64,000 bases of DNA, taken from positions 32,001-96,000 of IMG/VR virus record IMGVR_UViG_3300045988_114464; one strand, given 5' to 3'. Made by a program: the position numbers and the translations under genes. Below are positions 7,239 through 50,775 of this stretch, piece after piece (within the stretch, counting starts at the first letter, position 1; every line of letters starts with the position of its first letter). Source of the stretch: a virus. Under the pieces are notes generated by a model. That model had not been told where the DNA came from. It did no database searches and was given only the letters and a program-made list of their open reading frames with translations.

Positions 7239-8150
7239 ATGGCAACTACACCTCCAAAACAGTTACGCAGAACAGACCGATGTTGTCCTATTTGCGGAAC
7301 TGTTAAGTTAGCGAACTATTTCAATGAAAGTCCTGCCCCATATCACGATAAGTATATTCCTATTTGTCGTAACTGTTGCAATATACTGTTAAAGAGATAT
7401 ATTGCTGAAACGAAAAGTGAAGCCGCGGGCTTGTGGTTACTGTTAGCCCAAGTAAATATTCCATTTATCAATGAAATTTATGAGAAAGCTATTCTTAGGC
7501 TTCAAGACGCTTCTACAAAGAAGCCAAGTTTATTTGTGACATATCTTAGCTTTATGGCACAATGGAATGAACCGTATACTGGTTTTTTGCAGTCTACCAA
7601 TATGCTGACTGATTTTCTAAAGACGGTTGAAGTAGAAGCGGAAAAAATTCGCACCGAACAAAAACCGCTGAAGAATATGAAGGAAGAAATTGAGAAGTGG
7701 GGTAAATTTACAGGAGTTGACGGCAAAATTGACAGAGATTCTTATGATTTTTTGAATAGAACCTTTGATGAGTATACCGCCGATATTCTTGAAATGGACA
7801 CTAACTTAATGAATCGTTACCGCGATTTGTGCAAATGCGAATTGCGTTTGCGTAAAGCTAATGAATCGGGTGACGGTGCTGAGATTAGTAAAGCACAAGA
7901 TGCTTTGAACAAACAATTGGCTCTATTAAAGCTAAATGATTTCCAATCTAAGAACATTAGCGATGAGCAGAAGGCTTTTGAAAAGAAAGTCGCTATGATT
8001 GAATATAGCAAACCTGCTGAGTGTGAAGATTTACAGAAATATCTTGACATGGTAGGTTACGAGAAAGAAAAAGCAATGCTAAAGCGTTCTCTTAGAAATG
8101 CTGTAACTGGTTCTCGTGAATATCCTGATGTAACATTGCAGGAGGGATAA
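7239..8150 (+). CDS. hypothetical zinc-ribbon protein, possibly terminase small subunit by position
   Basis: CPICGT...CRNCC sits at the N-terminus and the rest is coiled-coil rich. The gene is immediately upstream of, and translationally coupled to, the large terminase. Confidence 0.35.
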   Translation: MATTPPKQLRRTDRCCPICGTVKLANYFNESPAPYHDKYIPICRNCCNILLKRYIAETKSEAAGLWLLLAQVNIPFINEIYEKAILRLQDASTKKPSLFVTYLSFMAQWNEPYTGFLQSTNMLTDFLKTVEVEAEKIRTEQKPLKNMKEEIEKWGKFTGVDGKIDRDSYDFLNRTFDEYTADILEMDTNLMNRYRDLCKCELRLRKANESGDGAEISKAQDALNKQLALLKLNDFQSKNISDEQKAFEKKVAMIEYSKPAECEDLQKYLDMVGYEKEKAMLKRSLRNAVTGSREYPDVTLQEG

Positions 8151-14767: not shown

Positions 14768-15681
14768 ATGATTATGAATCCTGAACTCGTAAAGTTTGCG
14801 GCTGATTCTCAGACTGGTTTCTATGATGCTGCTATGCGCTATTTCTGCGATGGCGAAAAGACCGCAGATAACAAGGAACTAATGCACAAGGCTTTTATGG
14901 CTGAAGTAGAGCACAAGTCTCACTTTGCTCGTGAAGGTCTTGACGTTAATGCTTGGATTGGCAACCCGTCTGTTTCTTGGGCGGCAATGAGTATCGTTGA
15001 CTCCACCATCCGTGCAATTATTCCTGTGACCATTCTACCACACTTTAATCTATTTGCTGATTTCCGCACCCAAGGCTTTGGTGATATTACCAAGTTTACT
15101 ATTCAGCCACGTTCTTTCTATGTTGTTTCTAAGGGCGGTCGTGCGGAACGTACTTCTTTCCGTCAGAGAAAGTTCAATTCTGATGTTACTCTGACCCCAG
15201 AAGAGCACATTATTACTATCTTTGAGAAGATGTATAATGTACTGTCTGGTCGTGTAAACATTGCTGACTTCATGGCATGGGTAATGCTGTCTGTTCAGAC
15301 CGAGATGTACACTGACGCTCTGATTGCTCTGAACGGCGGTCTTGCTACCATTCCAAACGGTTCTCTGAATGTAAACGGCGCATTTGACATGAAAACTCTT
15401 GTTAAGATGTGCGAAACTGTTCAGTACCGTAACGGTGGCGTAAAGCCGATTATTGCTGGCTCTGCAACCGCTCTAATGAACGTACTACCAGATTCTACTT
15501 CTGGCTATCGTATGAACGTAGATGGTGAAGGCAATGGTTCTATCGAACTACTCCGCAATATTATGGGTTACACCGTAATGAAGCTGGATAATGCTGTTAC
15601 TAAGGCTGGTGAACTGATTCTGCCTGATGATAAGATTTATGTTATTAGCCCATCTCAGGATAAGCTACTGAAGGGTGACTT
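14768..15681 (+). CDS. major capsid protein, exon 1 (3' boundary approximate)
   Basis: A long ORF after the scaffold gene. Its frame closes at 15695 just as td-like intron sequence starts. The capsid-like C-terminus resumes at about 17018. Confidence 0.6.
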
Positions 15682-15878
15682 ATGCCCTGCTTGTTAAGTG
15701 ATTAGCAAGTATTTTGCGTTAAATGCTTTGAATCCCTAAAGCCTACAAAACTCAAACAGTAATTGGAAACGATAAGCTGTGTAGTTACGAAAGTAGAAAA
15801 AATTTGTAGGATATTCATAAGGTTAAATCCTAAGTGAATGTAAATGGGTCTTTAGCAAGGAATGTCCTAAGTATAATA

Positions 15879-15907
15879 TTGACTATTATTGCAAAGTATG
15901 CTATAAT
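15879..15907 (+). promoter_or_regulatory. intron-internal promoter
   Basis: TTGACT, a 17-nt spacer, then TGc-TATAAT. It lies inside a roughly 35-nt insert that the paralogous intron lacks. Confidence 0.5.
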
Positions 15908-16029
15908 ATATTATATATGGAAAACCTTCAACGATTATCTCCTTATGGGAGAGTAGGCTACAAGCTAATGGTAGTCGAAAAATGCAACTCTTATACATTA
16001 TAAAAATTTTTAAGAAAGGAGGGAAAAAT

Positions 16030-16920
16030 ATGTTAGTCCCCAATCAATATATTACTGTTAATTGGCATCCAAGAAATAAAGTACATTTGGAAAGTAAAGG
16101 ATATATTTACACACACATTGGTCTACCTGTTCAAGTTAAAGTTGAAGATATGATGGCAGGTTCAAAATGCAGAGTAAAAGTACAATGCGATTATTGTGGA
16201 AAAATATATACCAAGGTATATAAAGATTATTTTGCTCAAAGACAAAACGGAAAAGATTGTTGCGCTAAATGTGCTTCTAAAAAGCGAGGAGAAACCAATC
16301 AAGAATTGTATGGCGGTAATGCTCCTGCTTGTTCTCCTAAAGTTGTAGAGAAAATGCAAAAATCTTGTTTAGATAAATATGGCGTTAAAGTGCCTTCTAA
16401 ATCGTCAAAGGTAAAGGCAAAAATGAGAGAAGTTAATATGGAACGATACGGTTTCCCTGTTCCATGCCAAAATCCAAGTGTACGCGCTAAATTTATTGAA
16501 ACAAATCAAAAGCGACATGGTGGTAATGGAAGTCAATGCAATCCAGAAGTTCGTAAGAAAACCATGCAATCTTTTATAAAACATGGTACGATTTGTTCTT
16601 CTGAACCAGAACGCGAAATGGTTAAAAAATTACAAAAGCTATATGGTTCTCAGAATTGCTTTCCACAATATTTGCTTGATAAAATTGTGTTTGATTGTTT
16701 GGTTATTGTTAATGGTGTCAAAATTGATGTAGAATTTGATGGAAAATATTGGCACAAAGACAAACACAAAGATATTCGGAGAGATTATTACAGTTTTTCT
16801 CAAGGATATAAAGTATTACGCTTTAGTGGGGATAACGATGCCCCTACTGAAGAGCAAATTCAACAAGGAATAGACTTTTTGGTGACAACCACTCACCGCC
16901 ATTTAATTATTGATGTATAA
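16030..16920 (+). CDS. intron-encoded Vsr/DUF559-like (PD-(D/E)XK) homing endonuclease
   Basis: I prefer ATG 16030, which follows AAGGAGGG, because it aligns with the N-terminus of the paralog at 21588. The C-terminus KIDVEFDGKYWHKDK..DIRRDYY..GYKVLRF follows the Vsr/DUF559 pattern. The middle has repeated KYGV..P motifs. Confidence 0.7.
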   Translation: MLVPNQYITVNWHPRNKVHLESKGYIYTHIGLPVQVKVEDMMAGSKCRVKVQCDYCGKIYTKVYKDYFAQRQNGKDCCAKCASKKRGETNQELYGGNAPACSPKVVEKMQKSCLDKYGVKVPSKSSKVKAKMREVNMERYGFPVPCQNPSVRAKFIETNQKRHGGNGSQCNPEVRKKTMQSFIKHGTICSSEPEREMVKKLQKLYGSQNCFPQYLLDKIVFDCLVIVNGVKIDVEFDGKYWHKDKHKDIRRDYYSFSQGYKVLRFSGDNDAPTEEQIQQGIDFLVTTTHRHLIIDV

Positions 16921-17017
16921 GATGAAGATATAATCTGGACTCATATGAAAGTATGAGAAGTTTAATTTATAGGGGATTAAACTGGACGGACGTTGCGAAT
17001 CCGTTTGAACACACTCG

Positions 17018-17156
17018 TGTAATGACTACAACCCTATCTAATTCTAACCAGTTCTACGATAATGCAGACCTAACTACTAACTTTACTCAGCGAGTAGAAT
17101 GGGGCTTCATGTTCGCAACTTCTGCATACGCAGGTGTCTACACTATCAACCAGTAA
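17018..17156 (+). CDS. major capsid protein, exon 2 (5' boundary approximate)
   Basis: ...VMTTTLSNSNQFYDNADLTTNFTQRVEWGFMFATSAYAGVYTINQ continues in frame with exon 1 if the intron is removed as modelled. Confidence 0.55.
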
Positions 17157-17198
17157 TAATTGGTAATCGAAATTAAAGGAACGAAAGGAAAATATAAA

Positions 17199-17834
17199 AT
17201 GGCTGAAACTAAGTCCACTGGGCGTGGTCGTCCAAAGAAGGTAGAATCTACTGAAATTGAAGCGCAAGCGCAGATGCAAAATGTAGAAGCTGAAAATGAC
17301 GCGCTAAAGAAGGAACTTACAGACATTAAGGCTCAAATGCAACTGCTGATGAGTTCTATGACTGCGCCTTCTGTGCCAACTCCTACTAAGAAAAATGAAC
17401 GTCTTATTCGTATCGTTAATATGACTAATGGTATGGCGGTGCTTCGTGGTTCTACTATTTGGAAGATTGACGGTCAGTTTAATTACCAAGATTTCTTGGA
17501 AACCGAAGCAAGTATTATTGTTGCTAATATGAGTAATATGGTACGTTCTGGTAGTATCTATATTGACGATGAACAGTTCCGTGCAGACCACAATCTAACG
17601 GACATTTATCGTTATCTACTTAGCAAAGACCAACTGCAACATCTACTGGATAATGACCCAAAGTATGCTATTGAAGCATATAAGGGCGCTAATGACAATC
17701 AGAAGCAGATTATTCTTGATATGATTTGTGATAAGTTGGATAAGGGGCAAGAAGTTGATGGTAATATTCTTATCACTCTGTCTAAGCTAAGTGGCAAGGA
17801 CTTGCTTGAAATGCAAAATGCCAAGGAGGAATAA
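17199..17834 (+). CDS. hypothetical protein with an N-terminal AT-hook-like GRGRPKK and a coiled coil
   Basis: I prefer ATG 17199 after GAAAGGAAAA. The sequence starts MAETKSTGRGRPKKVES. Confidence 0.5.
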   Translation: MAETKSTGRGRPKKVESTEIEAQAQMQNVEAENDALKKELTDIKAQMQLLMSSMTAPSVPTPTKKNERLIRIVNMTNGMAVLRGSTIWKIDGQFNYQDFLETEASIIVANMSNMVRSGSIYIDDEQFRADHNLTDIYRYLLSKDQLQHLLDNDPKYAIEAYKGANDNQKQIILDMICDKLDKGQEVDGNILITLSKLSGKDLLEMQNAKEE

Positions 17835-19805: not shown

Positions 19806-20372
19806 ATGTATAACAGTATGAAAGCGTTACCTCAAATTCCATATAACATTTTAACGTATTTGGCAAAAAACGATGAAATTATCTGGAAACTGCTAAAGTA
19901 TAATAGCTACGATGCTTTAAGCAAACCAGACCTTACTTTTGCAGAGAAGTTAAACCTTATTTGGAAAACTGGGGCACAAGCAGATTATAGCATCTTTCTT
20001 ACTCCCCTTGTGGAAGATGTTATGGCTGAAAGCAAGTGTATTTTGAAAATTTATGATTATTATATTCATGCCAAAGAATTGTATGTGGCAACACCAGTAT
20101 ATGCGTTTGATTTCTTGTATGGCGGTCAAATGTCTTTGGTAGAATATGAAAATATTCCTGTATCTCGTGGAGATTTGTTTATTCACCGCGCTATGGCTGT
20201 GCTTAATGGCGCATATGTAGCGGGTATTGGTAAACTAACCTTTAGTGATGATATGTCAAGATACAATCTTGCACGAAGCACTATAGGAAATAGTAAAACA
20301 TTTACAGGCGTTCAACTTTATATGAGTACGCTTGTGGGCGATTCTGGTAAGGATGTTGCTTGTGGCGATTGA
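19806..20372 (+). CDS. hypothetical virion protein
   Basis: A co-oriented ORF in the head-tail module. Confidence 0.45.
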   Translation: MYNSMKALPQIPYNILTYLAKNDEIIWKLLKYNSYDALSKPDLTFAEKLNLIWKTGAQADYSIFLTPLVEDVMAESKCILKIYDYYIHAKELYVATPVYAFDFLYGGQMSLVEYENIPVSRGDLFIHRAMAVLNGAYVAGIGKLTFSDDMSRYNLARSTIGNSKTFTGVQLYMSTLVGDSGKDVACGD

Positions 20373-21195
20373 TTTACAATACCTCAAAGAAGTATATTTT
20401 GCTTACGATGAACCAGTCCCCTATAAATGTAAGGGGGGTAACACTATTAACATTATTCCTGTTGATGTAAAACATGGGCTTGTTTTTCAATCCAGTGTTG
20501 ATATTATAGCATTTGACAAAAATAGTGTCAATGATGCAAAGGTAATTTCTATGAGTTATCTTGAGTTTATTATTGGTATGATGGCTGAAGCGCCAGTTTT
20601 TGTCCAAAAGTTTGTCAATATTTTGAAACTTTGTTTAGGGTTAGAGCATCCTGCGATAACTTTTAATGAACAAACTAACAAGCCGTTAATAGTGGATGAA
20701 GAAGCAGGAATAAAAATTACTCACAAAGATTTTGAAGATATTCGGAGAATTATTCTCTACCAGAATATTCCAAAATATGATGATGAGTATATTAACCCAG
20801 ACTTGAAAAAAGCAATGGAAGAAACTGATAGGCTGAGAAACAAAGATATTGATATGCCGACTTTTGAGCGAAAGTGTGCAATTATTACGGCTCATTGTGG
20901 CTTATCCAAGAAAGAACAGCTTGAGATGACGTTACGTTCTCATATTATGCTTTTTGACGAAGTTTGCGGCGAAATTGAATTTACAACGGTTCGTCCCGTG
21001 GCACTTTTTGGTGGCAAGGGTAATGAACTTGAACATTGGATTTTCCATAAAAAGAAGGGTAAATTCGATGGATACATTACAGAGAAAGACCAGCTTGTTA
21101 AGCAGATGGGTGGTGAAGGTAGCTTCACTAATGCGTCTACTGATACAAGTCGTGGTGATTCTCTGGAACAATTATTTAATCAAGGAGGAAATTAA
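20332..21195 (+). CDS. hypothetical virion protein (start uncertain)
   Basis: A long ORF that overlaps the previous gene by 41 nt. An internal start near 20353 is possible. Confidence 0.45.
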   Translation: MWAILVRMLLVAIDLQYLKEVYFAYDEPVPYKCKGGNTINIIPVDVKHGLVFQSSVDIIAFDKNSVNDAKVISMSYLEFIIGMMAEAPVFVQKFVNILKLCLGLEHPAITFNEQTNKPLIVDEEAGIKITHKDFEDIRRIILYQNIPKYDDEYINPDLKKAMEETDRLRNKDIDMPTFERKCAIITAHCGLSKKEQLEMTLRSHIMLFDEVCGEIEFTTVRPVALFGGKGNELEHWIFHKKKGKFDGYITEKDQLVKQMGGEGSFTNASTDTSRGDSLEQLFNQGGN

Positions 21196-21198
21196 AGT

Positions 21199-21406
21199 AT
21201 GGCTTCTGCTAATATTTTCACCGCTGGCCCTGCTCGTGCGCTGTTTTTCTACGGTCAGGACTTGATTGGTGTTGGTACTACTCTAAGTGATACCACTTTC
21301 GATTCTTCTATCACCGCCGAGGAAGTACGCGGTGGTCAGGGCAACCTGCTCTACGGTCAATACTTCCATGATTCTTCACTGACCGTTTCTATTACCGATG
21401 TAACTT
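21199..21406 (+). CDS. major tail (tube) protein, exon 1 (3' boundary approximate)
   Basis: MASANIFTAGPARALFFYG... closes at 21415 where sequence homologous to the capsid intron begins. Confidence 0.55.
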
Positions 21407-21536
21407 GCATTGCTTAATTGGTGACAATTAAGTACCGAGTGTTTAATGCTTTGAAAATGCCCTAAAGCCCTTTTACCCAAACAGTAGTTGGAAACAACAA
21501 GCTGAGTGGTTATAAAAAGTAAAGGGATTGATTTTA

Positions 21537-21565
21537 TTGACTTTTAAGTATTATTATGATATAAT
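21537..21565 (+). promoter_or_regulatory. intron-internal promoter for the endonuclease gene
   Basis: TTGACT, a 17-nt spacer, then TGa-TATAAT, 22 nt upstream of the TTG start. Confidence 0.5.
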
Positions 21566-21587
21566 ATAAGAAAGGGGATGATAAAAT

Positions 21588-22505
21588 TTGCTGTTAAAAG
21601 ATAATTTAGTTGAAATGAAATGGCATCCAACTAATAGAGTTAAATATGCAACTCGTGGTTATAAATTTACCGCTTTTGGCGAAAAGTTTTATGCAAAAGC
21701 GAGTGATGTACTTGAGTTAAGTAGTGGTGCTAAAATTCCTGTGCAATGCGATTATTGTGGCAAAATTTATTATCCTACTTCTCGTAATTATGAGAAATCA
21801 CAGTTACGAAAAGAGAAAGATTGTTGTGTTGCTTGTAAAGGTAAAGAAATTCGCGCAACCGTACAAAAGAAATATGGTGTTAATAATGTAGTAGAGTTGG
21901 ATGAAGTACGCATGAAGATGAAAGAAACTTGTCTTTCAAAATATGGTACTTCTTCTCCGCTTGAGAATAAAGAAATTTTTCAGAAAACACAAGATAGTTT
22001 TAATTCTCATTATGGAACAGAAAACGGTATTAAAGATTTGCGTTCTGTTCCAGAAATTGCTACAAGAATTGAGAATACTAATATTTCTAAGTATGGTGGC
22101 AAAGCACCAATATGCTCTTCTAAAATTAGGAACAAAATCAACCAAACAATGTATGAAAACGGAACTTGCAAAACTTCAGAAAAACAACTGTTATTGAATC
22201 AAATGGTAATTGATTTATACGGTAATTCTGAGTTGAATTATCCTTGCGATAAAGTGTCTTTGGATTGCATGACGATTGTCAATGGAATTAAAATTGACAT
22301 TGAATATGATGGTTGGTATTGGCATAAAGACAAACAAGAAGAAGATAAGCGCAGAGATTTCTTTGTAGAGTCTAAAGGTTATAAAGTTATTCGCTTTATA
22401 GCTTATGAAAACAGACTCCCTACCGAAGAAGAATTACGCAACGCAATTCATAAAATTACAACAACAAGTAGAAAATTTACTAAAGTCAAATTAAATAAAA
22501 TCTAA
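21588..22505 (+). CDS. intron-encoded Vsr/DUF559-like homing endonuclease (paralog of 16030-16920)
   Basis: It aligns by eye with the other endonuclease along its whole length (..KWHPTNRVKY..VQCDYCGKIY.., KIDIEYDGWYWHKDK..KRRDFF..GYKVIRF). Confidence 0.7.
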   Translation: MLLKDNLVEMKWHPTNRVKYATRGYKFTAFGEKFYAKASDVLELSSGAKIPVQCDYCGKIYYPTSRNYEKSQLRKEKDCCVACKGKEIRATVQKKYGVNNVVELDEVRMKMKETCLSKYGTSSPLENKEIFQKTQDSFNSHYGTENGIKDLRSVPEIATRIENTNISKYGGKAPICSSKIRNKINQTMYENGTCKTSEKQLLLNQMVIDLYGNSELNYPCDKVSLDCMTIVNGIKIDIEYDGWYWHKDKQEEDKRRDFFVESKGYKVIRFIAYENRLPTEEELRNAIHKITTTSRKFTKVKLNKI

Positions 22506-22717
22506 TGGGTAGTTTAGCAGGGAAAGTCCTAAGTCTATAAAGATATGGAAAACCCCCAACGACTATCTCTTGGCGAGAGAGTAAGCTACAAGCTAATGGT
22601 AGCTGAAAAATCCTCCCCTCTTTGTAGAGGTGAACAAATAGTCTGAACATCTATCGAAAAGATAGAGCAGTTCTTTAAGAACGGCATAGGGAGTTGCGTC
22701 CTTATGTGAACATATTG

Positions 22718-23604
22718 CAATGTTTAATCTTCAGTACGTTGCCGCAAACCTTGGTGTAAACCTTGAGCAAGGCGGTCTATCCGTAACTGAAGAAGAACTA
22801 ACTGTTGGCGCAGTTGGTGGCGCAGTAACACTAACTAACAAGCCAATCGCATTCTCTGGTTCTTATATCGGCTGGTATAAGAAGCCTTCTGACGCTGATT
22901 GGACTATTGGTACTATTGACGCTGACCAGAAGAAGATGAATATTGCTGGTGCAAAGGAAAATGAGCACTATTGTGTTAAGTATTTCTATCAGAATGAGAA
23001 CGCTAAGTCTATTACTATTAAGGCTCAGTTCGTTCCAAAGGTGCTACACCTTGTTCTGATTAACGACCTATTCTCTGGTTCTACCGCTGATGTAGCGGCT
23101 TCTACTTCTAAGTATGGTCGTCTAATTACCGATATTCCTCAGTTCCAACTCGATGGCGCACAAAATCTGGCATGGGCGGCAGCTTCTGCGGCAACCGTTT
23201 CTCTGTCTGGTAAGGCACTGGCATATTCTGATACCGAGTCTTGCGAAGTAGACCCAGTATACGGTACTATGACTCAAGAGATTTTTGGCGCTAAGTGGCA
23301 GGATGATGTTGTAGCACTCGCTTGCGAGAACGCTGAGATTGACCTTGCTGAATCTGGTACTGAAACTCTGATTGTTCGTGCGGTATTCGGTGGCGCAATT
23401 GCTTCTCAGCGCAAGGAAAACTCCAACTTTACCTTTGCTATTGTAGATGCCCCTGCTTCTACTGCAACTGGTACTACTGTTGGTGCTAATACTGGTATTG
23501 TAACTGCTGGTACTACTGCTGGCACTGCTGTAATTTCTATTACACTTACCAATTATCCGAACGTACCACCCGCATACGCTACCGTAACCGTAACTGTTGG
23601 TTAA
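22718..23604 (+). CDS. major tail (tube) protein, exon 2, with a C-terminal Ig-like domain
   Basis: (S)MFNLQYVAANLG... continues in frame. The C-terminus GTAVISITLTNYPNVPPAYATVTVTV is Ig-like, as in many siphovirus tube proteins. Confidence 0.55.
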
Positions 23605-25233: not shown

Positions 25234-25264
25234 AATAAGGTATAGTACAGAATTGAGGATAACT

Positions 25265-25798
25265 ATGGTTTATTGTGGTATTGATGCTTCAACCACTGCG
25301 GTAGGGTGGAGTATATTCAATGGTACTGACCTTATTGATTATGGGTGCTTTAGACCTAATGGTGATGATTGGCGCGACCGCACTCAGCAAATCGCGCCTT
25401 TCATTAAGCAACTATTAGAAAAGTATCATGTTAATAAGGTGATATTAGAAGATGTTCCTTTAATGGGTAAGCGAGGTAATAAAACCTTGGTTATCCTTGG
25501 TGCTGTGCAAGGAATGTTATTAGGAGTAACATCTTCTATGAATATTCCTACCGAGTTTATTTTACCAAGCGCGTGGAGAAGTCCGATTGGACTTTTTGAT
25601 GGTACGAAAGCTGGTACTCGTAGGGATGAAATGAAAAGAAAGTCAATAGAAAAAGCAAATGAACGATTCGGTCTTGAACTAAAGTGGGTGTCGCCTTGTA
25701 GTAAGAAGAACGATGACGATATTGCTGACGCTATTCTGGTAGCATACTCACAGATAAGCAAAGTTCGCTTTGTCAAAAACCCAAAAGTGAAGGAGTGA
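25265..25798 (+). CDS. RuvC-like Holliday junction resolvase
   Basis: MVYCGIDASTTAVGWS (catalytic Asp), VILEDVP (Glu) and DDDIADAILVAY (C-terminal acidic pair) occur in RuvC order. I prefer ATG 25265. Confidence 0.6.
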   Translation: MVYCGIDASTTAVGWSIFNGTDLIDYGCFRPNGDDWRDRTQQIAPFIKQLLEKYHVNKVILEDVPLMGKRGNKTLVILGAVQGMLLGVTSSMNIPTEFILPSAWRSPIGLFDGTKAGTRRDEMKRKSIEKANERFGLELKWVSPCSKKNDDDIADAILVAYSQISKVRFVKNPKVKE

Positions 25799-25802
25799 GT
25801 TT

Positions 25803-26378
25803 ATGGCAGATTTTAAGATTTCTATTGATACTGAATTAAAAACTTCGCAAATTGATTCACAAATTAGTGAAATAAAATCTAAACTTGAAAATGCGGTTAA
25901 GGATGTTCCTTTAAGTATTAACTTAAATCAAGTAAATAATCAGATTGATGATTTACAAACACGTTTAAGAACCGCGTTTGACAATATCAACGCAAACGTC
26001 AACTTCGGCAATGCTACACAACAAGCAGAGCAATTAGGGCAAAACTTGAGAACTGCTGGTGATAACTTTAATAGTATCGGTAGTGGCGGTGGTGGTAATA
26101 ATGCAAATAACCAATTATTGCAATTAACACAAGGTGCTCAAAATGCTTCTGAGCAAATTCGTGAAACAGCGACCGCAGTTGAAGAATCTACGCTTTCTTA
26201 TCAAGAGTGGAACGTTGTTCTAAACGCTTGTATTGATACTATTAAAAGTTTTGCAGAACAAACTTTTGAAATGGACTCTGCTCTTACAGATTTTAAGAAA
26301 GTATCTGATTTAAGCGGAGATAGTCTAAATCAATATGTAGATAAATTACAAGACCTTGGTTCTACCGTTGCTCGTACT
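25803..26378 (+). CDS. tail tape measure protein, 5' segment (exon 1; boundary approximate)
   Basis: A coiled-coil, Q/N-rich N-terminus that ends ..DKLQDLGSTVART(G) just before the canonical TMP core, which resumes at about 26969. Confidence 0.5.
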
Positions 26379-26732
26379 GGCTAATAATAACCAGAGTGTA
26401 TAGATGGTAAATATGCACTGAGAAGTGTTCAAAACCCTTGAAAGCCTAAGAGCCTTACTACCACAACATAAGGATGAGATACGCCTAAGTGTGACGGTAT
26501 GGAAACTCAAAAAACAGTAAGGATGATATATGGTGGAAACGCCTAAGTATTGATATAAATATTGTATAGTGTTGATATAAAAATGTCAATAGTGTAAAGT
26601 ATTTATATAAAATGGCAGTTTGGGCGCGAAGTCCTGATGAGGGATGTGTCAACAGAGTAAAAGTTCACTTCCCTCCAAAATATATAGGGAAAAGAAGTAT
26701 TCGGGCTGTAAGAGAAATCTTATAGAATTATC

Positions 26733-26760
26733 TTGACAACGCTAAATAATATGATATAAT
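26733..26760 (+). promoter_or_regulatory. promoter for the small intervening-sequence ORF
   Basis: TTGACA, a 16-nt spacer, then TGa-TATAAT, followed by AAGGAG and ATG 26786. Confidence 0.55.
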
Positions 26761-26785
26761 AGGCTTATAAAAGGAGTTGAATATC

Positions 26786-26962
26786 ATGGAGATTATTAAG
26801 ACGTTGGCTGAATGTTTTGCCGTTCAGTGTTTCTTCTGGCTTATTGGCGGTACGGTTAATTATTTCCGTACTGGCAAGTTCTTTATTGTACATTATAAGG
26901 CACAAAGGAATGATGAAAAATCTAAGGAGATTTATTCTAAAAGCTGGTGGGATAAAAGATAA
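26786..26962 (+). CDS. 58-aa hydrophobic/basic peptide encoded inside the tape measure intervening sequence
   Basis: MEIIKTLAECFAVQCFFWLIGGTVNYF..., one predicted TM-like segment and a basic tail, with its own promoter and RBS. Confidence 0.45.
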   Translation: MEIIKTLAECFAVQCFFWLIGGTVNYFRTGKFFIVHYKAQRNDEKSKEIYSKSWWDKR

Positions 26963-26968
26963 CTGTCG

Positions 26969-29900
26969 GAAATGGTAGAAGGTGCGACTGAGTTCCGCAA
27001 AAACTCTTTCAATGATGAAGATTCTGCGAACTTAGCGCAAGTTTCAGCTATGTTTCAAAACGTAGCGGATGAATCACTATCTGCTGGTGATTCTGCTTCG
27101 TTTATTATCGCACAAATGAAAGCGTTTGGCATTGAAGCTGACAATGCCATCCATATCGTAGACGCGGTGAACGCCGTTTCTAACAATTTTGCGGTTTCAT
27201 CTGGCGACCTCGCTACGAACCTTGGTAATATGTCTGCCGCACTTGCAGTAGGTAATAATACATTTGAGCAGTCTTTGGCAATGCTTACGGGTATTACCGA
27301 AGTTACTCGTAATGCGTCTAAGGGTAGCCGTGCGTTGGTGTCCGTGCAGAGCCGTCTTAACCAAGTCGTTGATGAAAGTTCAAGCACAGGTCAAAAATTA
27401 ACTAATTGGTATAATGACCATAATATTGCGATTTATGACCAAGAAGGCGAATTAAGAAGTCTGTATGAAATCTTAGGTGACGTTTCTAAACAGTGGGACG
27501 GACTATCTAAGAATGAGCAGTCTTATTTTCTAAACATACAAGCGGGTGCAAATCAGTCTCAGAACCTTGCTTCACTTCTCTCAAACTGGGATTCTGTAGT
27601 AAAGGCTCAAGATGTAGCACTTAATTCCGCAGGTTCAGCCGCAAAGGAAAATACGGCATATATGGACAGCCTTGAGTCCAAGGTTGCGGCTCTAAAGGCT
27701 TCTTTCCAAGAACTTGCTAACGCTGTAATTACCAAAGAAATGGTATCAGAAGTGTTGAATTTGGTCAACGCTTTTACTAAACTTGCTGATACTGGTGTAG
27801 GTAGAGCAATTATTAAATTTGCGCTATTCTCTACTACCATGAGAGCGGCTTCTGCTATTTTTGGCAATACGGCAAGAGTATTGCTTCAGATGTTCACAGG
27901 CATGAGCACTGGACAAAGAACCATTACTGAGTTGATGAATGCTGGCGGTAGAATTGGTTCGATATTCACCAATTTGATGGGTATTTTTAACGATGTTCGT
28001 ATGTCTGCTTCTGGTATGGCTGGACCGATGACAGCTTCTTCCAGTGCGTTGTCAGGAATGGCTTCATCTGCACTTTCGGCTCTTACTTCGCTAAATCCAC
28101 TTGCGATTGGCATAGGTGCTGTTGTTGCCGCTGGCGCTGGGCTTGCAATAGCTATTAAACATTATGCTAATGAAGAAAAGAATCTTCAGAAGTCAGTAGA
28201 CGAACATAAAAATTCTGTTAGTGATATTCAAAGTCAAATTGACGAATACAATTCGACCCTTGAATCTAACAAACAACGTCTTGAAGAAATCAATTCCTTA
28301 AAGGGTACTTCAAAGTGGAATGGCGAACTTGAAAATGAAGCAAACACGCTTGAACGCCAAAATACTCTTATCGAAAGACAGATTACTCTACAAGAGCAAA
28401 AGCTAAAGGCAGAGCAAGCCGCACTTTGGCAAGAACAATCTAAGTTGTTTGATAAGCAGTATGGCGATAAAATGCGCTATACTACAAAGCAACAAAATCT
28501 TCGTGGTGAAGAAGTATCTGTTACTCTTACTGGCGAAAAAGCCTATAAACAAAAATTAACAGATTTACAAACAACTATCCATAAGTTTACACAAACACAA
28601 AATCTTGATTATAAAGAAGCCGCTACTGAAGCTGAAAGTTCGATTCTATCAATTATTTCTGAACTTGAAGAATATAAAGAAGCGGCTGTATCTGCTGGCG
28701 ATACTACTAAAGCTGATTACATTCAATCTTTAATTGATTTGGCTGAAGCCAGTGATTCTGTAAGCGGTGGTACTATTGGTGATGCACTTGACGGCGATTC
28801 AAAAGCAATGGAGAACGCCGCCGATAAAGCAGAACAATTACACGACCGTATAGTAAATCTTGCACAAGATTTGGGAACAACTGTTGCTCAACTTGGCATT
28901 AAAGCTAAAGACGCTTTTTCTACAGAAGAATGGTTGGAAAAACTTGACCCATCTTCTTTGAACAATCTTGAGCAAATACTAAATCTGATAGGCGACCGTG
29001 CGGGTTGGCTTGGCTCACAGCTTAGCAATATGTCAACAGAAGAAACCGTCACTTATCTATCAGAAGTTATGCGCCGATTTACTGGTGCTGTGCAAGACGC
29101 TACTGGCGCTTATGATGAATTTGACAAGGCTTTAGAAACAGATTTTGCAAAGCCTTTGCAACAAATGAATGAAATGGCTGACTACATTGAGCAGTCAGAT
29201 AAACATGGCATTCAGAATATGCAAGCGTATAACAAGGCTTTGGAAGGCGTATACGGTACAACTGATAAGAATATTATTGCGCTTCAAGACCAGAAAGCCG
29301 CTATGTCGGATTTCCGTACAACTACGGTTGAAACGGCTACTGCTCTTGATAATATGAAAGCCTACTATGATTCAGCGGGTAATTTCTTAGGCGATAAACT
29401 TCTTAAAAATATTGAGCAAATTTCCAAAAACAAGGACAAGTTTGGCGACCTTGTTAATTTTGAGAAATTTGATGACGGCACTTTCAAAGTAGCTGTTAAG
29501 GATTTTGGCGACCTTGCGGACGCTCTTGGTATAACTCAGCCAATGTTGAGCAGTTTTATGGAAGCCCTTGGTGGTTCTGTAGACTTCCAAATGGGGGACA
29601 CCTTAAATGCCGCTCAAGCCGCTATTCAAGATATTCATGACGCTGTTTCTAATACAGATGCAGGTGGTATTTCAGACCTACTAAATAAACTTGGTAGTGC
29701 TGACCCCACGAATATTAAGAATAGAGTGCAAGATTTACAAGCGCTTAATGATAAACTTAATGACCTTTCATCCTATACAAATGTACCTTTTGATTTTGAC
29801 TTTAGTAAATTAGAAGGTCAAGATTTTACTGATGCCGCAAAGCAAGTTGAAGGTTACGCAAATGCACTTAAAACCTTTACTACGGATTCTGGTTCTTGGG

Positions 29901-32900
29901 ATTTAAGTGGTACTATTGACAAGGTTAATAGTGCGCTTAAAGACGCAAGTAAAGGTACTAAAATCGAACTTGATGGTAATAACATTAAGTTTGAGTCGGA
30001 AGATGCAGTCAATGAACTAAAGAGCCAAATCGAAGATGCCTTTGATGGTATGGACTTTGAAGATATTGTCAAAACTGATGCGGGCAAGAGCATACTTGCT
30101 AATCTTTTTGACGGTATGGAAATTGACGCTGACCAAGCGGGCGATGTAGGTAAAGATTTCGCTGACGCAGTAACCGAAGCTATTCAAGACCAATTAAACA
30201 CCACTCAAATCGCACTTAACGGTATTGGTGCTGAAGTCAAGGGCGAGTTAGGTTATCAAGTTGACGAAGGCATGAACGCTGTTCAAGAATCTGGTCAACG
30301 AACTGCTGATTGGTTCTCTAATAGCTTTGCGCCACAAGTACAGCAAGGTGTTCAGAGCGCTATGTCTGGTGCAGAACAATCCGCACAAAATAGCGTAAGT
30401 GTTCTACAAGGCATATTCTCTAACATGAATATTGCTGACCCAATGCAACAAGTTCAGCAAGGTATTCAAAACGTCAACGGCGAAGTTAATAACTTTAGTG
30501 CTGGTAACATGACAAGTCAGCTTGGTGAAGTTGGCACTGCCGCAGGGCAAGCAGGAGATAAATCTGAAGAAGCTAAAACTAAGGCTCAACAACTGAGTCA
30601 AGTTTCTATGTCGAACTTTATCACTGGTATGGTGAATGGCGCAAGTTCGGCTTCTGCGCTATCTTCTATTGCTTCTACTGCTTATAACAATGCTTCTAAG
30701 TTAAATACTACCTTTACTACCGTATTTAAGGCTGATACTTCTCAGTGGAAAGTTCCTTCTCTTCCTACGGGAGTAAAGAAGGCTGTGGGTCAAATTCCAG
30801 CTTATGCCAACGGTAAAATGGATGACCTTTCTGGCACTCAACCAATGCGTTCTCAATCCTCTAAGATTGCGCTCGTTGGTGAGGAAGGCGCAGAGTTCCG
30901 TATTACTGCTGATGGCAGAAAAGAACTTCTTGGTAAGAATGGTGCAGAATTTGTCAAGGTAAATAAGGGTGATACCATTATTCCTGCGAATGTTACTGAT
31001 ATGATTCGCAAGGGACAACTTCAAGGGTATGAAGCGGGCAAATTTGGTGGTAGAACTTCTGTTTCTGGTTCTGGTGTAAGCAATGGCAATCATACTATTC
31101 ATGTTGGCAAAACCGAAAGTCGATATGTTGGTGCGACCAGTAGTAGCACTAAGGCTACTCATGCTAATACTAAGGCGACTAATGCCAATACTTCTGCTAA
31201 GTCTGCTAACGCTTCTGCAAGTTCCAAAGCCGCTGAAGCAACAGACGAACTAACAGACGCACAGAAAAAGCAGAAAGAAGCCTTTGAAGAAGCTAACGAT
31301 GTAACCGAACACCATATTTTCTTGCGTGAAAAACAAGGCGCTTCTTACGCTGAACTCATTAAGATGAGTAAGGCTTATCAGAAGCAACTTAATAAGCAAG
31401 CAAATTGGTGGAGAAGCCAAGGGTTTAACGATGATTCTGAAGAAATCCGCAAAATCCAAAAGGATTGGTGGGGACTTCAAGATGACATAACTTCCTATCA
31501 AGAAAAGGCTTTTGACGAACGCTATCAGAAATCCAAAGATTACATTGATGACCGTAATGACCTTGAAGATTGGGGTGCTGACTCCGAAATTGAAGCATGG
31601 CATCGTGTTGAAAAGTGGATGGATGAATGGTATGCTCGTGGCGAGATTAGCTACAAGTATTACCTTGAAAAGCGTAAAGAAGCCACAAAAAAAGCCGCCG
31701 AAGCTGAAAAGAAGGCTTGGGAAGAAGCTAAAAAGTCTCAGATTAAAGAACTTGAAGATTGGCAAGACGTTTACGAAGATTTGTTTGACCTTGTAGCTGA
31801 CAAGGCTCAAGAAGAAATCGACAAACTGAACGAACAACGCGATACCGTTGAAAAATATTGGGACGATAAAATTGACGCGCTTGAAAAGGCGAACGATGAA
31901 CTTGACGACCAGATTGAAAAGGAAGAAGCACTTGACGCTTTGGCTCGTGCTCGTTCCACTAAAGTCATGGTTTATCAGAATGGTCGATTCCAATATATCA
32001 ACGATATGGACGAAGTTTCTGAAGCTAAGACTAACCTTGAAAAGATTGAGCGCGAACAAGCACTCAAGAAAGAAAAGGAAAATCTTGAAAAGCAGAAAGA
32101 AGCGGCTCTAAAGGCTATTGACGACCAGATTGACGCATGGGAAAAATACAAAGACGAGTGGGGCAAGGTTGTTTCTGATTACGAAAAGAAGCAGAAGGAA
32201 CTTAATGTTCTACAGAAACTTGGTATTGACCTTGAAGCAGATAACTGGAAAGAGCGCCTTGGTAATCTACAAGATTACGTTAATAAGTATGCCGAAATTA
32301 TGGGGCAACTTACCAAACTTAAAAAAGAAGAAGAATTGGGTAAAGACCTGCCTTCCTATGACTCTAACAAGGGTACTGCTGGCGCGGGTGCTGGTGCAAT
32401 TATTGGTACTGGTGCAGGTATTGCCGCTGGTGGTGCTATTGGTGGCGCTGTCGGTGGTGCTATTGGCACGGTCATTGGCGCTGTAACCGGTGGTCTTGGG
32501 CTTAATAAAGGTAGTTCTTCTTCTGGTGGTTCAAGTTCTTCTGGAAAAACTTACCAATCTGTTGGTGGTAAAGCACCTTCTGGCTTAAAAGCTGGTGACA
32601 AGGTAGTTACTAATGGTGGTACTTACACTATCACTGGTGTTAATAAGGACGGTTCTTATACTTCTCAGAAAACTTCTAACACTACAAAGTCCAATTATAA
32701 AGGCACTTATTCAAAGAAGGCTTCTGGCACTAAATATAATGCGGCAGGTATTTCGCTCGTTGGCGAAGAAGGCGCAGAATTGCGCGTACTTGGTCAAGGT
32801 GAAGGTATTGTTCCTCATGATATGACAGCTAACCTGTTTGAATGGGGACAAACCAGACCGAGCGATATTGTATCTGCTATCACAGGCGCACAAACTGAAA

Positions 32901-33040
32901 ATTCTGGTGTGACGATTTGCATAGAAAACTTCAATCCTTCTCTACCCAATGTTGTGGATGGTGAAGGTTTTGCTAATTATCTCAAGAATAATTTCTGGCG
33001 TAATGTTGTACAATATAAGACGACTATGGGGAGGGCGTGA
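26969..33040 (+). CDS. tail tape measure protein, main segment (exon 2)
   Basis: More than 2000 aa with a TP901-type TMP core (..SAGDSASFIIAQMKAFGI..NLGNMSAALAVG..), long coiled coils, a Gly-zipper (GAGAGAIIGTGAGIAAGGAIGG) and two LVGEEGAE motifs. Confidence 0.85.
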   Translation, partial: EMVEGATEFRKNSFNDEDSANLAQVSAMFQNVADESLSAGDSASFIIAQMKAFGIEADNAIHIVDAVNAVSNNFAVSSGDLATNLGNMSAALAVGNNTFEQSLAMLTGITEVTRNASKGSRALVSVQSRLNQVVDESSSTGQKLTNWYNDHNIAIYDQEGELRSLYEILGDVSKQWDGLSKNEQSYFLNIQAGANQSQNLASLLSNWDSVVKAQDVALNSAGSAAKENTAYMDSLESKVAALKASFQELANAVITKEMVSEVLNLVNAFTKLADTGVGRAIIKFALFSTTMRAASAIFGNTARVLLQMFTGMSTGQRTITELMNAGGRIGSIFTNLMGIFNDVRMSASGMAGPMTASSSALSGMASSALSALTSLNPLAIGIGAVVAAGAGLAIAIKHYANEEKNLQKSVDEHKNSVSDIQSQIDEYNSTLESNKQRLEEINSLKGTSKWNGELENEANTLERQNTLIERQITLQEQKLKAEQAALWQEQSKLFDKQYGDKMRYTTKQQNLRGEEVSVTLTGEKAYKQKLTDLQTTIHKFTQTQNLDYKEAATEAESSILSIISELEEYKEAAVSAGDTTKADYIQSLIDLAEASDSVSGGTIGDALDGDSKAMENAADKAEQLHDRIVNLAQDLGTTVAQLGIKAKDAFSTEEWLEKLDPSSLNNLEQILNLIGDRAGWLGSQLSNMSTEETVTYLSEVMRRFTGAVQDATGAYDEFDKALETDFAKPLQQMNEMADYIEQSDKHGIQNMQAYNKALEGVYGTTDKNIIALQDQKAAMSDFRTTTVETATALDNMKAYYDSAGNFLGDKLLKNIEQISKNKDKFGDLVNFEKFDDGTFKVAVKDFGDLADALGITQPMLSSFMEALGGSVDFQMGDTLNAAQAAIQDIHDAVSNTDAGGISDLLNKLGSADPTNIKNRVQDLQALNDKLNDLSSYTNVPFDFDFSKLEGQDFTDAAKQVEGYANALKTFTTDSGSWDLSGTIDKVNSALKDASKGTKIELDGNNIKFESEDAVNELKSQIEDAFDGMDFEDIVKTDAGKSILANLFDGMEIDADQAGDVGKDFADAVTEAIQDQLNTTQIALNGIGAEVKGELGYQVDEGMNAVQESGQRTADWFSNSFAPQVQQGVQSAMSGAEQSAQNSVSVLQGIFSNMNIADPMQQVQQGIQNVNGEVNNFSAGNMTSQLGEVGTAAGQAGDKSEEAKTKAQQLSQVSMSNFITGMVNGASSASALSSIASTAYNNASKLNTTFTTVFKADTSQWKVPSLPTGVKKAVGQIPAYANGKMDDLSGTQPMRSQSSKIALVGEEGAEFRITADGRKELLGKNGAEFVKVNKGDTIIPANVTDMIRKGQLQGYEAGKFGGRTSVSGSGVSNGNHTIHVGKTESRYVGATSSSTKATHANTKATNANTSAKSANASASSKAAEATDELTDAQKKQKEAFEEANDVTEHHIFLREKQGASYAELIKMSKAYQKQLNKQANWWRSQGFNDDSEEIRKIQKDWWGLQDDITSYQEKAFDERYQKSKDYIDDRNDLEDWGADSEIEAWHRVEKWMDEWYARGEISYKYYLEKRKEATKKAAEAEKKAWEEAKKSQIKELEDWQDVYEDLFDLVADKAQEEIDKLNEQRDTVEKYWDDKIDALEKANDELDDQIEKEEALDALARARSTKVMVYQNGRFQYINDMDEVSEAKTNLEKIEREQALKKEKENLEKQKEAALKAIDDQIDAWEKYKDEWGKVVSDYEKKQKELNVLQKLGIDLEADNWKERLGNLQDYVNKYAEIMGQLTKLKKEEELGKDLPSYDSNKGTAGAGAGAIIGTGAGIAAGGAIGGAVGGAIGTVIGAVTGGLGLNKGSSSSGGSSSSGKTYQSVGGKAPSGLKAGDKVVTNGGTYTITGVNKDGSYTSQKTSNTTKSNYKGTYSKKASGTKYNAAGISLVGEEGAELRVLGQGEGIVPHDMTANLFEWGQTRPSDIVSAITGAQTENSGVTICIENFNPSLPNVVDGEGFANYLKNNFWRNVVQYKTTMGRA

Positions 33041-49812: not shown

Positions 49813-50775
49813 TCACATTGATTTGCGGTCTTTGAACTCTGCGAGTTTGTGGTCTGCATACATGGTTCTGCCTTTGATTTTAGAATATCCTAAATATCCG
49901 TTCATTCTCTCAATACGAGTGATGTTTTTACTGCCACATTTAGGACATTCATCTTTATCAATGAAAGAAGCGCCACAATCTTCACAATAATCAAGCTGTA
50001 GATTTACACCTTCATAGAAGCCCATATCCATTGCTCTACGAATGAGAGTTTTCATTGCTTCAATATTGTAGTCTGTAGTATAACGACAATATTGAATATT
50101 ACCACCATTACATAGATGGAACATTGGATATTCAATATCTTGCTTTTGAATAGGCGAAATATCTTCCCATACACCACAATGAAACGAATTAGAAGTGTAA
50201 GGACGGTCAGATACGCCCTTAATAATGCCGTATTTCTTGCGGAACTGCTCGACCTGCAAACCGCAAAGGGATTCAGCAGGAGTTCCGTAGAGAGCATATA
50301 GAATGTTGTCGATTTTCTTATATTTCTCAGCATAATCATTGATAAACTTCAAAACTTCAATGGCAAAAGTATTATCTTCGGCAATGGTTTTACCGTTATA
50401 CAGTACACTGGTTTCATTGAGTGCAGTAATACCAAAACTCATTGTCATAGGACGAAGGAAATCTTCGCCAATTTCTTCTTCTGGGTCAAAGTGACCATTA
50501 AGAAAACCGCCTTGACAGAAAGCAAGTGGGTTAGTACCAGCTTTCTTGTGAGAAAGATAAGTAAATGTGCGCTTGTGAATAGCGCGGCACATATCAAGAT
50601 AATAAGTTAGTACGTCATAAAAATCCTTGTTTTCTTGCTTTGCTTTAGCAAGAATCATAGGAAAGTGAAGGGAGATTGCTCCGAGGTTACAACGCCCTTC
50701 ATATACAGGCTTGTCTTGGTCATCTGCGGGGTACATACCGCCACGCTCATACCAAGGTGAAAGATTTGCTCGACA
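49813..50775 (-). CDS. anaerobic ribonucleotide reductase NrdD, exon 2
   Basis: It starts CRANLSPW..EGRCNLGAISL and ends with the zinc site CEDCG..CPKCG and the glycyl-radical loop RMNGYLGY. The track's Met is a TTG that belongs to the intron. Confidence 0.85.
   Translation of the reverse strand, partial: CRANLSPWYERGGMYPADDQDKPVYEGRCNLGAISLHFPMILAKAKQENKDFYDVLTYYLDMCRAIHKRTFTYLSHKKAGTNPLAFCQGGFLNGHFDPEEEIGEDFLRPMTMSFGITALNETSVLYNGKTIAEDNTFAIEVLKFINDYAEKYKKIDNILYALYGTPAESLCGLQVEQFRKKYGIIKGVSDRPYTSNSFHCGVWEDISPIQKQDIEYPMFHLCNGGNIQYCRYTTDYNIEAMKTLIRRAMDMGFYEGVNLQLDYCEDCGASFIDKDECPKCGSKNITRIERMNGYLGYSKIKGRTMYADHKLAEFKDRKSM

Follow-up and report, generated by a model that had tools for sequence, protein, structure and literature searches.

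In the 64,000-nucleotide stretch of viral DNA analysed here (positions 32,001 to 96,000 of IMG/VR record IMGVR_UViG_3300045988_114464; hereafter the window), the gene encoding the phage tape measure protein (TMP) is interrupted by an insertion at 26382-26965, which is very probably a group I intron carrying a promoter-driven small-protein cassette. A first-pass annotation of the same DNA had tentatively proposed an intron at this place, and the proposal is now supported by the exact continuity of the two exons, a covarying group I fold, an invariant terminal G and covariation between the guide sequence and the exons. Both the splicing of the element and the expression of its open reading frame (ORF) are inferred from sequence.

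The N-terminal segment of the TMP is encoded by an ORF of 193 aa (25803..26384), which stops, as the first-pass annotation had read it, at three tandem TAA codons (26382-26390). The TMP core then continues in an open frame from 26966 (TCG GAA ATG...), close to the earlier estimate of about 26969; the long ORF on the same strand (26972..33040) comprises 2022 aa, and its frame has been open since 26963. When the C-terminal piece was analysed alone, the Pfam PhageMin_Tail match started only at profile position 16-19. Joining the 193-aa piece to SEMVEG... gave a PF10145 match over profile positions 2-194 with 88 bits, compared to 81 unjoined, and a TIGR01760 match over residues 145 to 401 (profile 6-253) that spans the junction; both families cross the junction in the joined protein only. 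A scan of viral contigs yielded 17 related TMP loci, which were compared with tblastn. Five of these (L005, L007, L014-L016) are uninterrupted and codon-for-codon colinear over the junction, with intron-less ...VARTA/TQVIEAATEF... aligning with ...VARTG/SEMVEGATEF... of the window, while the other twelve (L001-L004, L006, L008-L013, L017) contain an insertion of 584-650 nt at the identical junction. This position, which in the window is exactly the Gly193/Ser junction, is kept codon-exact across TMPs sharing just 40-50% identity. Since the intron-less homologues are colinear and the domain matches span the joined protein, the TMP gene appears to be interrupted rather than followed by a second gene. 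No ribosome-binding site for exon 2 itself was found in the window sequence. The stop codons, together with the changed reading frame, ruled out an intein in the TMP.

The insertion belongs to a large undescribed family of gut-phage introns. Searching IMG/VR with an 18-nt core pattern returned 83 stretches, and a core profile led to approximately 70 loci with 45 distinct cores, each located after the ...(A/G)-R-T-G codons of a TMP gene in uncultured phage contigs. A profile built without the window copy recovered 26391-26726 at E 4e-52, and nhmmer separated members cleanly; the window holds a single copy of this intron type. The secondary structure was built by hand from aligned copies (alignment A1) and scored on 17 diverse copies against slid partners and 500 shuffles. 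Standard pairs were formed in 86.7% of the structure cells compared to 32-45% in the slid controls, double-sided changes were present at 39 of 75 pairs compared to 9-20, and the covariation score reached 0.39 compared to at most 0.12 in the controls, with none of the 500 shuffles scoring as high. The predicted ribozyme makes up the 5' 345 nt of the intron, running from P1 to P9 in the P3/P7 pseudoknot order, and every helix could be located in the window (Table 1).

The first-pass annotation had found no convincing S/P7 element. Such an element is nonetheless present: TATTCGG (26698-26704, within AAGAAGTATTCGGGC) pairs with CAGAGTA (26653-26659), the 5' strand of P7, which lies in the block previously described as R-like and now assigned to the J6/7-P7 region. 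Throughout the copies P7 reads C-A(bulge)-G-A-(G/A/C)-U-A with a matching 3' strand (L038 and L096: CAGACUAU/AUAGUCGG), the pair at 347/392 is seen as AU, GC, CG or GU, and a G-C pair occupies the guanosine-binding-site position. The AAA of J3/4 is invariant, the P9 loop is of the GAAA type, and P5d combines a GAAA loop with an 11-nt receptor. The first-pass annotation had described sequence blocks common to this and the other introns of the window; CCCTTGAAAGCCTAAG and GTCAACAGAGTAAAAG, however, have no close copy in the window, and the introns have in common just the generic CCUAAG/UAUGG tetraloop-receptor motif. A hammerhead ribozyme, suggested by the string CUGAUGAG, was rejected since no hammerhead stems were found and CUGAUGAG is the loop of P6a, and inspection by eye for a group II intron showed no GUGYG or domain V. 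A minus-strand promoter-like sequence (TTGACA-17-TACAAT, 11/12 positions) lies at 26561-26589 inside P5e and is weaker in L085; it is probably a by-product of the palindrome.

Table 1. Predicted features of the interrupted tape measure gene, its intron and the intron-borne cassette (window coordinates)
Feature	Position	Strand	Details	Basis
TMP exon 1	25803..26381	+	193 codons; C-terminal end ...V-A-R-T-G	ORF list, translation, PHROG TMP matches
Group I intron	26382..26965	+	584 nt; begins with three in-frame TAA, ends with G26965	Intron-less colinearity; 45 homologous insertions sharing this codon junction
P1	26376..26395	+	5' exon ACUGGC 26376-81 with guide ACCAGA 26390-95; splice-site position C opposite A	
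P2 hairpin	26395..26419	+	Conserved loop GAUGGUAAA	5/7 pairs changed on both sides in relatives
P3 5' strand GAAGUG	26422..26427	+	Partner CACUUC 26666-26671; register of window lineage set by hand	Found by inspection; covaries in relatives
J3/4 AAA, P4, P5 and extended P5 domain	26432..26624	+	P4 26435-40/26619-24; P5 26444-47/26613-16	
P5 extension	P5a 26453-59/26516-22; P5b 26466-92; P5d 26525-51	+	P5d: 11-nt receptor UAUGG/CCUAAG and GAAA loop	
P5e	26552-26612	+	Optional AT-rich hairpin	
P6 and P6a	26625..26648	+	P6 CGC/GUG; P6a hairpin GUCCU-GAUGA-GGGAU	100% of cells paired; two double-changed pairs in P6a
P7 5' strand	26653-59	+	C-A(bulge)-GAGUA; pairs with UAUUCGG 26698-26704 (P7 3' strand)	
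P3 3' strand	26666-71	+		
P8	26671-89	+	Followed by J8/7	
P9 hairpin	26706..26725	+	CUGUAAGA-GAAA-UCUUAUAG	5/6 pairs changed on both sides
Closing-helix 5' arm UUAUCUU	26728..26734	+	Pairs with AAGAUAA 26956-26962	RNA duplex analysis
Promoter, sigma-70/sigma-A type	26733..26760	+	TTGACA-16-TGaTATAAT; extended -10	12/12 consensus positions
Shine-Dalgarno AAGGAG	26771..26776	+	9 nt before ATG	
58-aa ORF	26786..26962	+	MEIIKTLAECFAVQCFFWLIGGTVNYFRTGKFFIVHYKAQRNDEKSKEIYSKSWWDKR (begins MEIIKTLAECFAVQCFFWLIGG...); ATG 26786, TAA 26960-26962	
TMP exon 2	26966..33040	+	2024 codons and stop; starts S-E-M-V-E-G-A-T-E-F	

The guide sequence covaries with both exons that it is predicted to contact. In the commonest guide, UCUGA-GCCGGU, the 3' half pairs with the 5' exon ACCGGU, leaving a U·G at the splice site, and the 5' half, UCUGA, pairs with the 3' exon UCAGA to form P10. 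Compensatory changes in P1 give the combinations ACCGGU/GCCGGU, ACUGGU/GCCAGU (L011, L029), AGCGGU/GCCGCC (L071) and ACCGGC/ACCGGA, and P10 has changed in the same manner in L038, where the guide UCAGG faces the 3' exon UCUGA. Among the 17 copies the splice-site pair is U·G in 11, C opposite A in the window and L085, C-G in L021 and G-C in three. The last nucleotide of the intron is G in all copies with a locatable 3' end, and in the window this is G26965.

Right after P9, every copy carries a cassette in the same order: promoter, Shine-Dalgarno sequence and small ORFs, of which there are one, two or three. The TTGACA-N16-TGaTATAAT promoter, the AAGGAG and the 58-aa ORF of the window all lie where the first-pass annotation had put them, and the promoter is the top promoter match within 24-34 kb. 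Plus-strand promoters agreeing at 11 or more of 12 positions occur in the 15-42 kb structural block at just 15879-907, 21537-565 and 26733-760, each preceding an intron ORF. The promoter is conserved in 40/40 distinct copies; its -35 box is TTGACA in 39 and TTGACT in one, and its -10 region contains TGn in 39 and then TAnnnT. The spacer measures 17 nt except in the window lineage (16) and in one other copy (18), and its sequence varies by lineage. As the other intron ORFs of the window are homing endonucleases with similar promoters, the small ORF occupies the slot that endonuclease genes fill in these sister introns. The earlier suggestion of a promoter-driven small ORF instead of an endonuclease is thereby strengthened by the promoter conservation, by purifying selection and by the homing endonucleases of the sister introns.

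The cargo ORFs in family copies encode 58-110 aa and end 3-25 nt short of the 3' splice site. In the window the splice site past G26965 falls 3 nt beyond the ORF stop codon, a refinement of the 6 nt given previously, and no terminator was found between the two. A terminator-like hairpin (9-bp stem, T-rich tail) is present at 27071-27093, approximately 105 nt inside exon 2, and could end transcripts from the intron promoter. The promoter-derived transcript was predicted to be more open at the ribosome-binding site in 34/40 copies, though inconsistently against shuffled-upstream controls (mean z -0.65); given this inconsistency, no claim is made for an I-TevI-style sequestration of the site by sequence 5' of the transcription start.

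In 28 of 36 distinct copies, the sequence in and around the -35 box is complementary to the final 20-30 nt of the intron, with a mean z of -3.6 compared to shuffled 3' ends. The helix is exemplified by L058 (AAUUGUCUAUUG/CAAUAGACAAUU) and recurs in two sister lineages, as AAAUUAUCUAAU/AUUAGAUAAUUU in one vs AAAUUAUUUAAU/AUUAAAUAAUUU in the other. By closing the cargo loop, it would return the 3' splice site to the core, a requirement of group I introns in which a peripheral loop contains an ORF. The closing helix also accounts for the ORF ending so near the 3' splice site.

The cargo proteins are built alike: between one and three hydrophobic segments are combined with a linker rich in Lys, Arg and Glu, which often includes T-P-x-G-R-x-Q, and with an aromatic-Gly motif at the C terminus, for instance KYDNDWGYI, INEWGLDDDWRWGKL or YWGTIDYWEDK, which is predicted to be cytoplasmic by the positive-inside rule. 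The 58-aa ORF of the window encodes a divergent and the shortest member. Purifying selection acts on the cargo ORFs: dN/dS is 0.05-0.16 for ORFs of one cargo type, and the window ORF shows 0-1 aa vs 2-5 nt changes among four contigs. No endonuclease gene was found in the TMP intron. When the window ORF and nine relatives were scanned against Pfam, PHROGs and PADLOC, no significant match to any family emerged, the best being a PHROG holin at E 0.14. Searching 5.8 billion proteins with a profile returned 23 cargo homologues, all unnamed, and scanning 1.84 billion representatives in full with HMMER returned 103 clusters, nearly all of 55-134 aa with one 183-aa outlier; the family holds at least 100 clusters at 50% identity. 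The homologues in L198 and L202 sit at the identical TMP site. In L197 (1-1100), a family member of 114 aa (P0046) is accompanied by a TTGACT-17-TGaTATAAT promoter and a closing inverted repeat, within a different group I intron that has canonical-looking R and S elements and occupies another TMP site (after ...FEQIIGLT). Finally, L199 (1700-2100) carries a free-standing 58-aa homologue (P0118, motif TPRGRE...NEYGII) on the bacterial contig GCA_029258595.1, where it has an extended -10 promoter and a rho-independent terminator to itself and adjoins a MerR-like gene.

Several observations weigh against the interpretation of the insertion as a cargo-bearing, splicing group I intron, most of them concerning the window copy itself. 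The covariance-model search proposed at the outset gave no match of the Rfam group I model RF00028 on 26200-27200 even at E<=10, nor at this place when the window was scanned at the gathering threshold, nor on the relatives at the TMP site. In the window lineage C26381 stands opposite A26390 in place of the near-universal U·G, P10 is missing from the window, where AAUAAUA is unable to pair with UCGGA, P4 of the window contains tandem U·U mismatches, and the closing helix is just 7 bp long and insignificant alone (z -1.5). The G-C splice-site pair of three relatives is unusual for group I introns. As for the cargo, the window ORF is without the Trp/Tyr-Gly motif of the family and reaches a maximal 19-residue Kyte-Doolittle average of only 1.55 compared to 2.1-3.0 in relatives, so that its earlier description as hydrophobic holds marginally. 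The silence of RF00028 is treated as low sensitivity for this intron clade and not as counter-evidence to a group I assignment, because the model also misses or underscores other introns: it gives the two endonuclease-bearing introns of the window only 26 bits, below threshold, and misses two introns of L197 with canonical-looking R and S elements. On other introns in the relatives' TMP genes the same model scores 77-95 bits. The clade has a P5 extension of approximately 170 nt and no P7.1/P7.2.

The window, L001-L003 and L085 share a remodelled 5' end, in which the intron begins UAAUAAUAA. The C·A pair, the lack of P10, the weak closing helix and the shortened cargo without a WG motif could together mean that the family is real but that the window copy is decaying, with splicing poor or absent and the TMP made as two polypeptides or through inefficient splicing. 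A U·G splice-site pair has been treated as critical (PMC2504315). Four near-identical contigs and the more distant L085 nevertheless keep all core helices, exon 2 lacks its own ribosome-binding site, and P1 has changed in a compensatory manner (ACUGGC/ACCAG in the window, ACCGGC/ACCGG in L085), which argues for selection on P1 pairing. A C·A wobble can stand in for U·G in group I P1 in vitro, and P10 is not strictly needed for group I splicing. A decaying copy is therefore considered improbable, and the window copy likely retains splicing. Less probable still is that the TMP is truly encoded by two genes, split without any splicing by a moron or a mobile cassette with inverted repeats. Flanking inverted repeats could indeed be terminal repeats at the DNA level, a similar cassette is found in a different intron (L197) and a homologue stands free in a bacterium (L199), and RF00028 is silent; yet such an insertion would leave unexplained the 345-nt covarying group I fold 5' of the cassette, the invariant terminal G, the covariation of the guide with both exons and the codon-exact junction across TMPs that are 40-50% identical.

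Concerning the cargo, the small ORF of the window might be a non-functional remnant, with only the promoter or the RNA structure being of importance, as it is the shortest member, has no Gly motif, is marginally hydrophobic and matches no known family. We regard this as unlikely in view of the 0-1 aa vs 2-5 nt changes in four contigs, the intact Shine-Dalgarno and ATG, and the low dN/dS of related cargo ORFs. Somewhat less doubtful, though still not probable, is that the cargo proteins time lysis in the manner of holins or antiholins, or act as small membrane toxins favouring retention of the intron: one to three transmembrane segments with a highly charged C-terminal tail are a generic holin and type I toxin architecture, and variable copy number and rapid sequence diversification would fit. 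There is, in turn, no significant match to such a family, and a consensus host-type promoter, which in a lytic phage predicts early cargo expression, points away from a late role. A role in superinfection exclusion or in some similar early process at the membrane, host takeover included, is tentatively favoured based on the host-type promoter, the diversity of the family, the varying copy number, the linkage to the TMP and the analogy to HK97 gp15. The likeness to the exclusion proteins T4 Imm and HK97 gp15 consists of a transmembrane segment with a charged tail and the tail-operon site only, with no homology.

No relative of the TMP-intron region or of the ribozyme core was found by megablast and blastn in 50,697 deposited phage records, and in 185,579 bacterial and archaeal genomes only 2 of 96 pattern matches were true copies, both on phage-like contigs of 80-100 kb. 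Given these two copies and the lytic appearance of the window, a prophage or moron reading was not favoured. In L081 (reverse complement, 7671-7947), a related ribozyme (107 bits with the core profile) is situated at another TMP site, 3' of a 384-aa ORF, and the ribozyme clade is therefore not limited to one site. Cores that are nearly identical occur in TMP genes that have diverged strongly, and the intron is therefore mobile. In 85 of 861 pairs of distinct elements, core identity was at least 25 points above that of the flanking exons, and the cores of L093 and L056 are 99% identical while their exons are 67% identical. Among the 56 pairs with cores that are 92-99% identical, the first 30 nt of exon on each side share just 67-72% identity, and such a drop at the intron ends fits transfer at the level of the intron. 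Near-identical cores can also carry differing cargo, either one vs three ORFs or unrelated sequences. As a conjecture, the intron may spread by reverse splicing, by recombination during co-infection or with the help of endonucleases encoded elsewhere. In L004 and L012 an endonuclease-bearing group I intron of canonical type (RF00028, 77-88 bits) is located just 24 nt 3' of the TMP intron. In the window, a 441-aa minus-strand ORF (771-2096), apparently free-standing, matches homing-endonuclease PHROGs (phrog_314, E 3e-36) and might act as a nuclease in trans.

The phage looks lytic and rich in introns, and no integrase was found among the window ORFs scanned. The insertion at 15698-17159, between ORFs 14768-15697 and 17160-17834, is probably another intron; it contains a homing-endonuclease ORF (15982-16920, phrog_12131), a sub-threshold RF00028 match (16822-16957, 26 bits, E 0.016) and the promoter TTGACT-17-TGnTATAAT (15879-15907). 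A structural gene (20332-21195 and 22720-23604, the latter matching a virion-protein PHROG) is apparently split by an insertion of approximately 1.5 kb at 21196-22719, with a homing-endonuclease ORF (21588-22505), a sub-threshold RF00028 match (22469-22667) and a near-consensus promoter (21537-21565). In its 5' part, at about 21440-21530, this insertion is similar to P5/P5a of the TMP intron. The nrdD gene for anaerobic ribonucleotide reductase (49813-52784, minus strand) is likewise split, 51594-52784 corresponding to profile positions 5-392 and 49813-50778 to 393-711, and an HNH endonuclease ORF (50923-51411) lies between the parts. A RuvC-like Holliday junction resolvase gene (25253-25798) is found directly 5' of the TMP gene, as in the relatives L081 and L202. 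The TMP genes of relatives contain up to four insertions (L004, 1499-4842; L012, 2274-3974; L017, 2745-4001; L003, 4582-6109); L003 equals the window in the TMP-intron region and has an extra 1.5-kb insertion past residue 195 of the exon-2 query segment (LSEMVEG...).

Taken as a cargo-bearing group I intron, the element may work as follows. In late transcripts of the whole gene, the 5' 345 nt of the intron would fold into a ribozyme of P1-P9 with an extended P5 domain, the guide at 26390-95 would pair with the end of exon 1, and G26965 would mark the 3' splice site. The cassette would sit in a loop that is closed where the promoter region base-pairs with the 3'-terminal nucleotides of the intron. 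Splicing would join ...VARTG to SEMVEGATEF..., giving one TMP of 2217 aa with the predicted ligated exon junction GTTGCTCGTACTGGC/TCGGAAATGGTAGAAGG and the predicted junction peptide TGSEMVEGATEFR. The small gene would be transcribed by the host RNA polymerase, starting near 26767, and would not depend on the late TMP message; its product might block the TMP-dependent genome injection of competitors. The inverted repeats of the cassette would also act as an RNA helix bringing the 3' splice site to the ribozyme, and the cassette could move between introns, as L197 suggests, and to or from bacterial chromosomes, as L199 suggests.

Group I introns of bacteria and phages are known to carry homing endonucleases, a transposase (IStrons) or nothing. 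The T4 td, nrdB and nrdD introns contain I-Tev endonuclease ORFs with their own promoter, expressed apart from the message of the host gene. The element described here similarly combines a phage group I intron with an internal ORF that has its own promoter and would be expressed from it, but the ORF encodes no endonuclease, sits between P9 and the 3' splice site, and shows no consistent I-TevI-type sequestration of its ribosome-binding site. The IStrons of Clostridioides difficile are group I ribozymes fused to an IS200/605 element; common to both are a 5' group I ribozyme, non-endonuclease cargo in the 3' part and the excision of the whole element, which is presumed in our case, whereas the present intron has no transposase, its cargo consists of membrane proteins of 58-134 aa, and the element occurs solely at one TMP site. 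Group I introns in TMP genes are already known: those of Bacillus cereus group prophages are of type IA1 or IA2, and are ORF-less or encode GIY-YIG or HNH endonucleases (Tourasse & Kolsto 2008, PMC2504315). The two groups have in common conserved TMP sites, occurrence in diverged phages and site-adapted P1 and P10 (PMC2504315). The present family differs in its extended P5 domain, the lack of an RF00028 match, and its promoter and small membrane-protein genes.

The HK97 gp15 moron, a small inner-membrane protein encoded beside the TMP gene, causes a tail-dependent block of genome injection and has bacterial homologues (YebO) (PMC3594210). The intron cargo resembles it in being a small membrane-protein gene with its own promoter at a tail-operon site and in having a bacterial homologue (L199). 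In contrast, there is no sequence similarity, gp15 is intergenic and expressed from a prophage, and the present phage looks lytic and has no terminator after the ORF. In the literature searched, no description was found of promoter-driven, non-endonuclease cargo of small membrane proteins in group I introns. What appears to be new is a ribozyme clade that escapes Rfam and, above all, the conserved promoter-driven non-endonuclease cargo.

If this reading is correct, a self-splicing intron would shelter accessory genes within an essential late gene, since the insertion would cost nothing once the element splices out. This also raises the question of how an intron without an endonuclease spreads so precisely. 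As the Rfam group I model misses a whole clade of phage introns, split TMP genes in the annotations of gut phages have probably been misread as two genes. The cargo defines an uncharacterised family of small proteins, and it is possible, though we hold this only tentatively, that group I introns in TMP genes serve as vehicles for accessory genes, whose early small membrane proteins would aid both the carrier phage and the intron in conflicts between phages.

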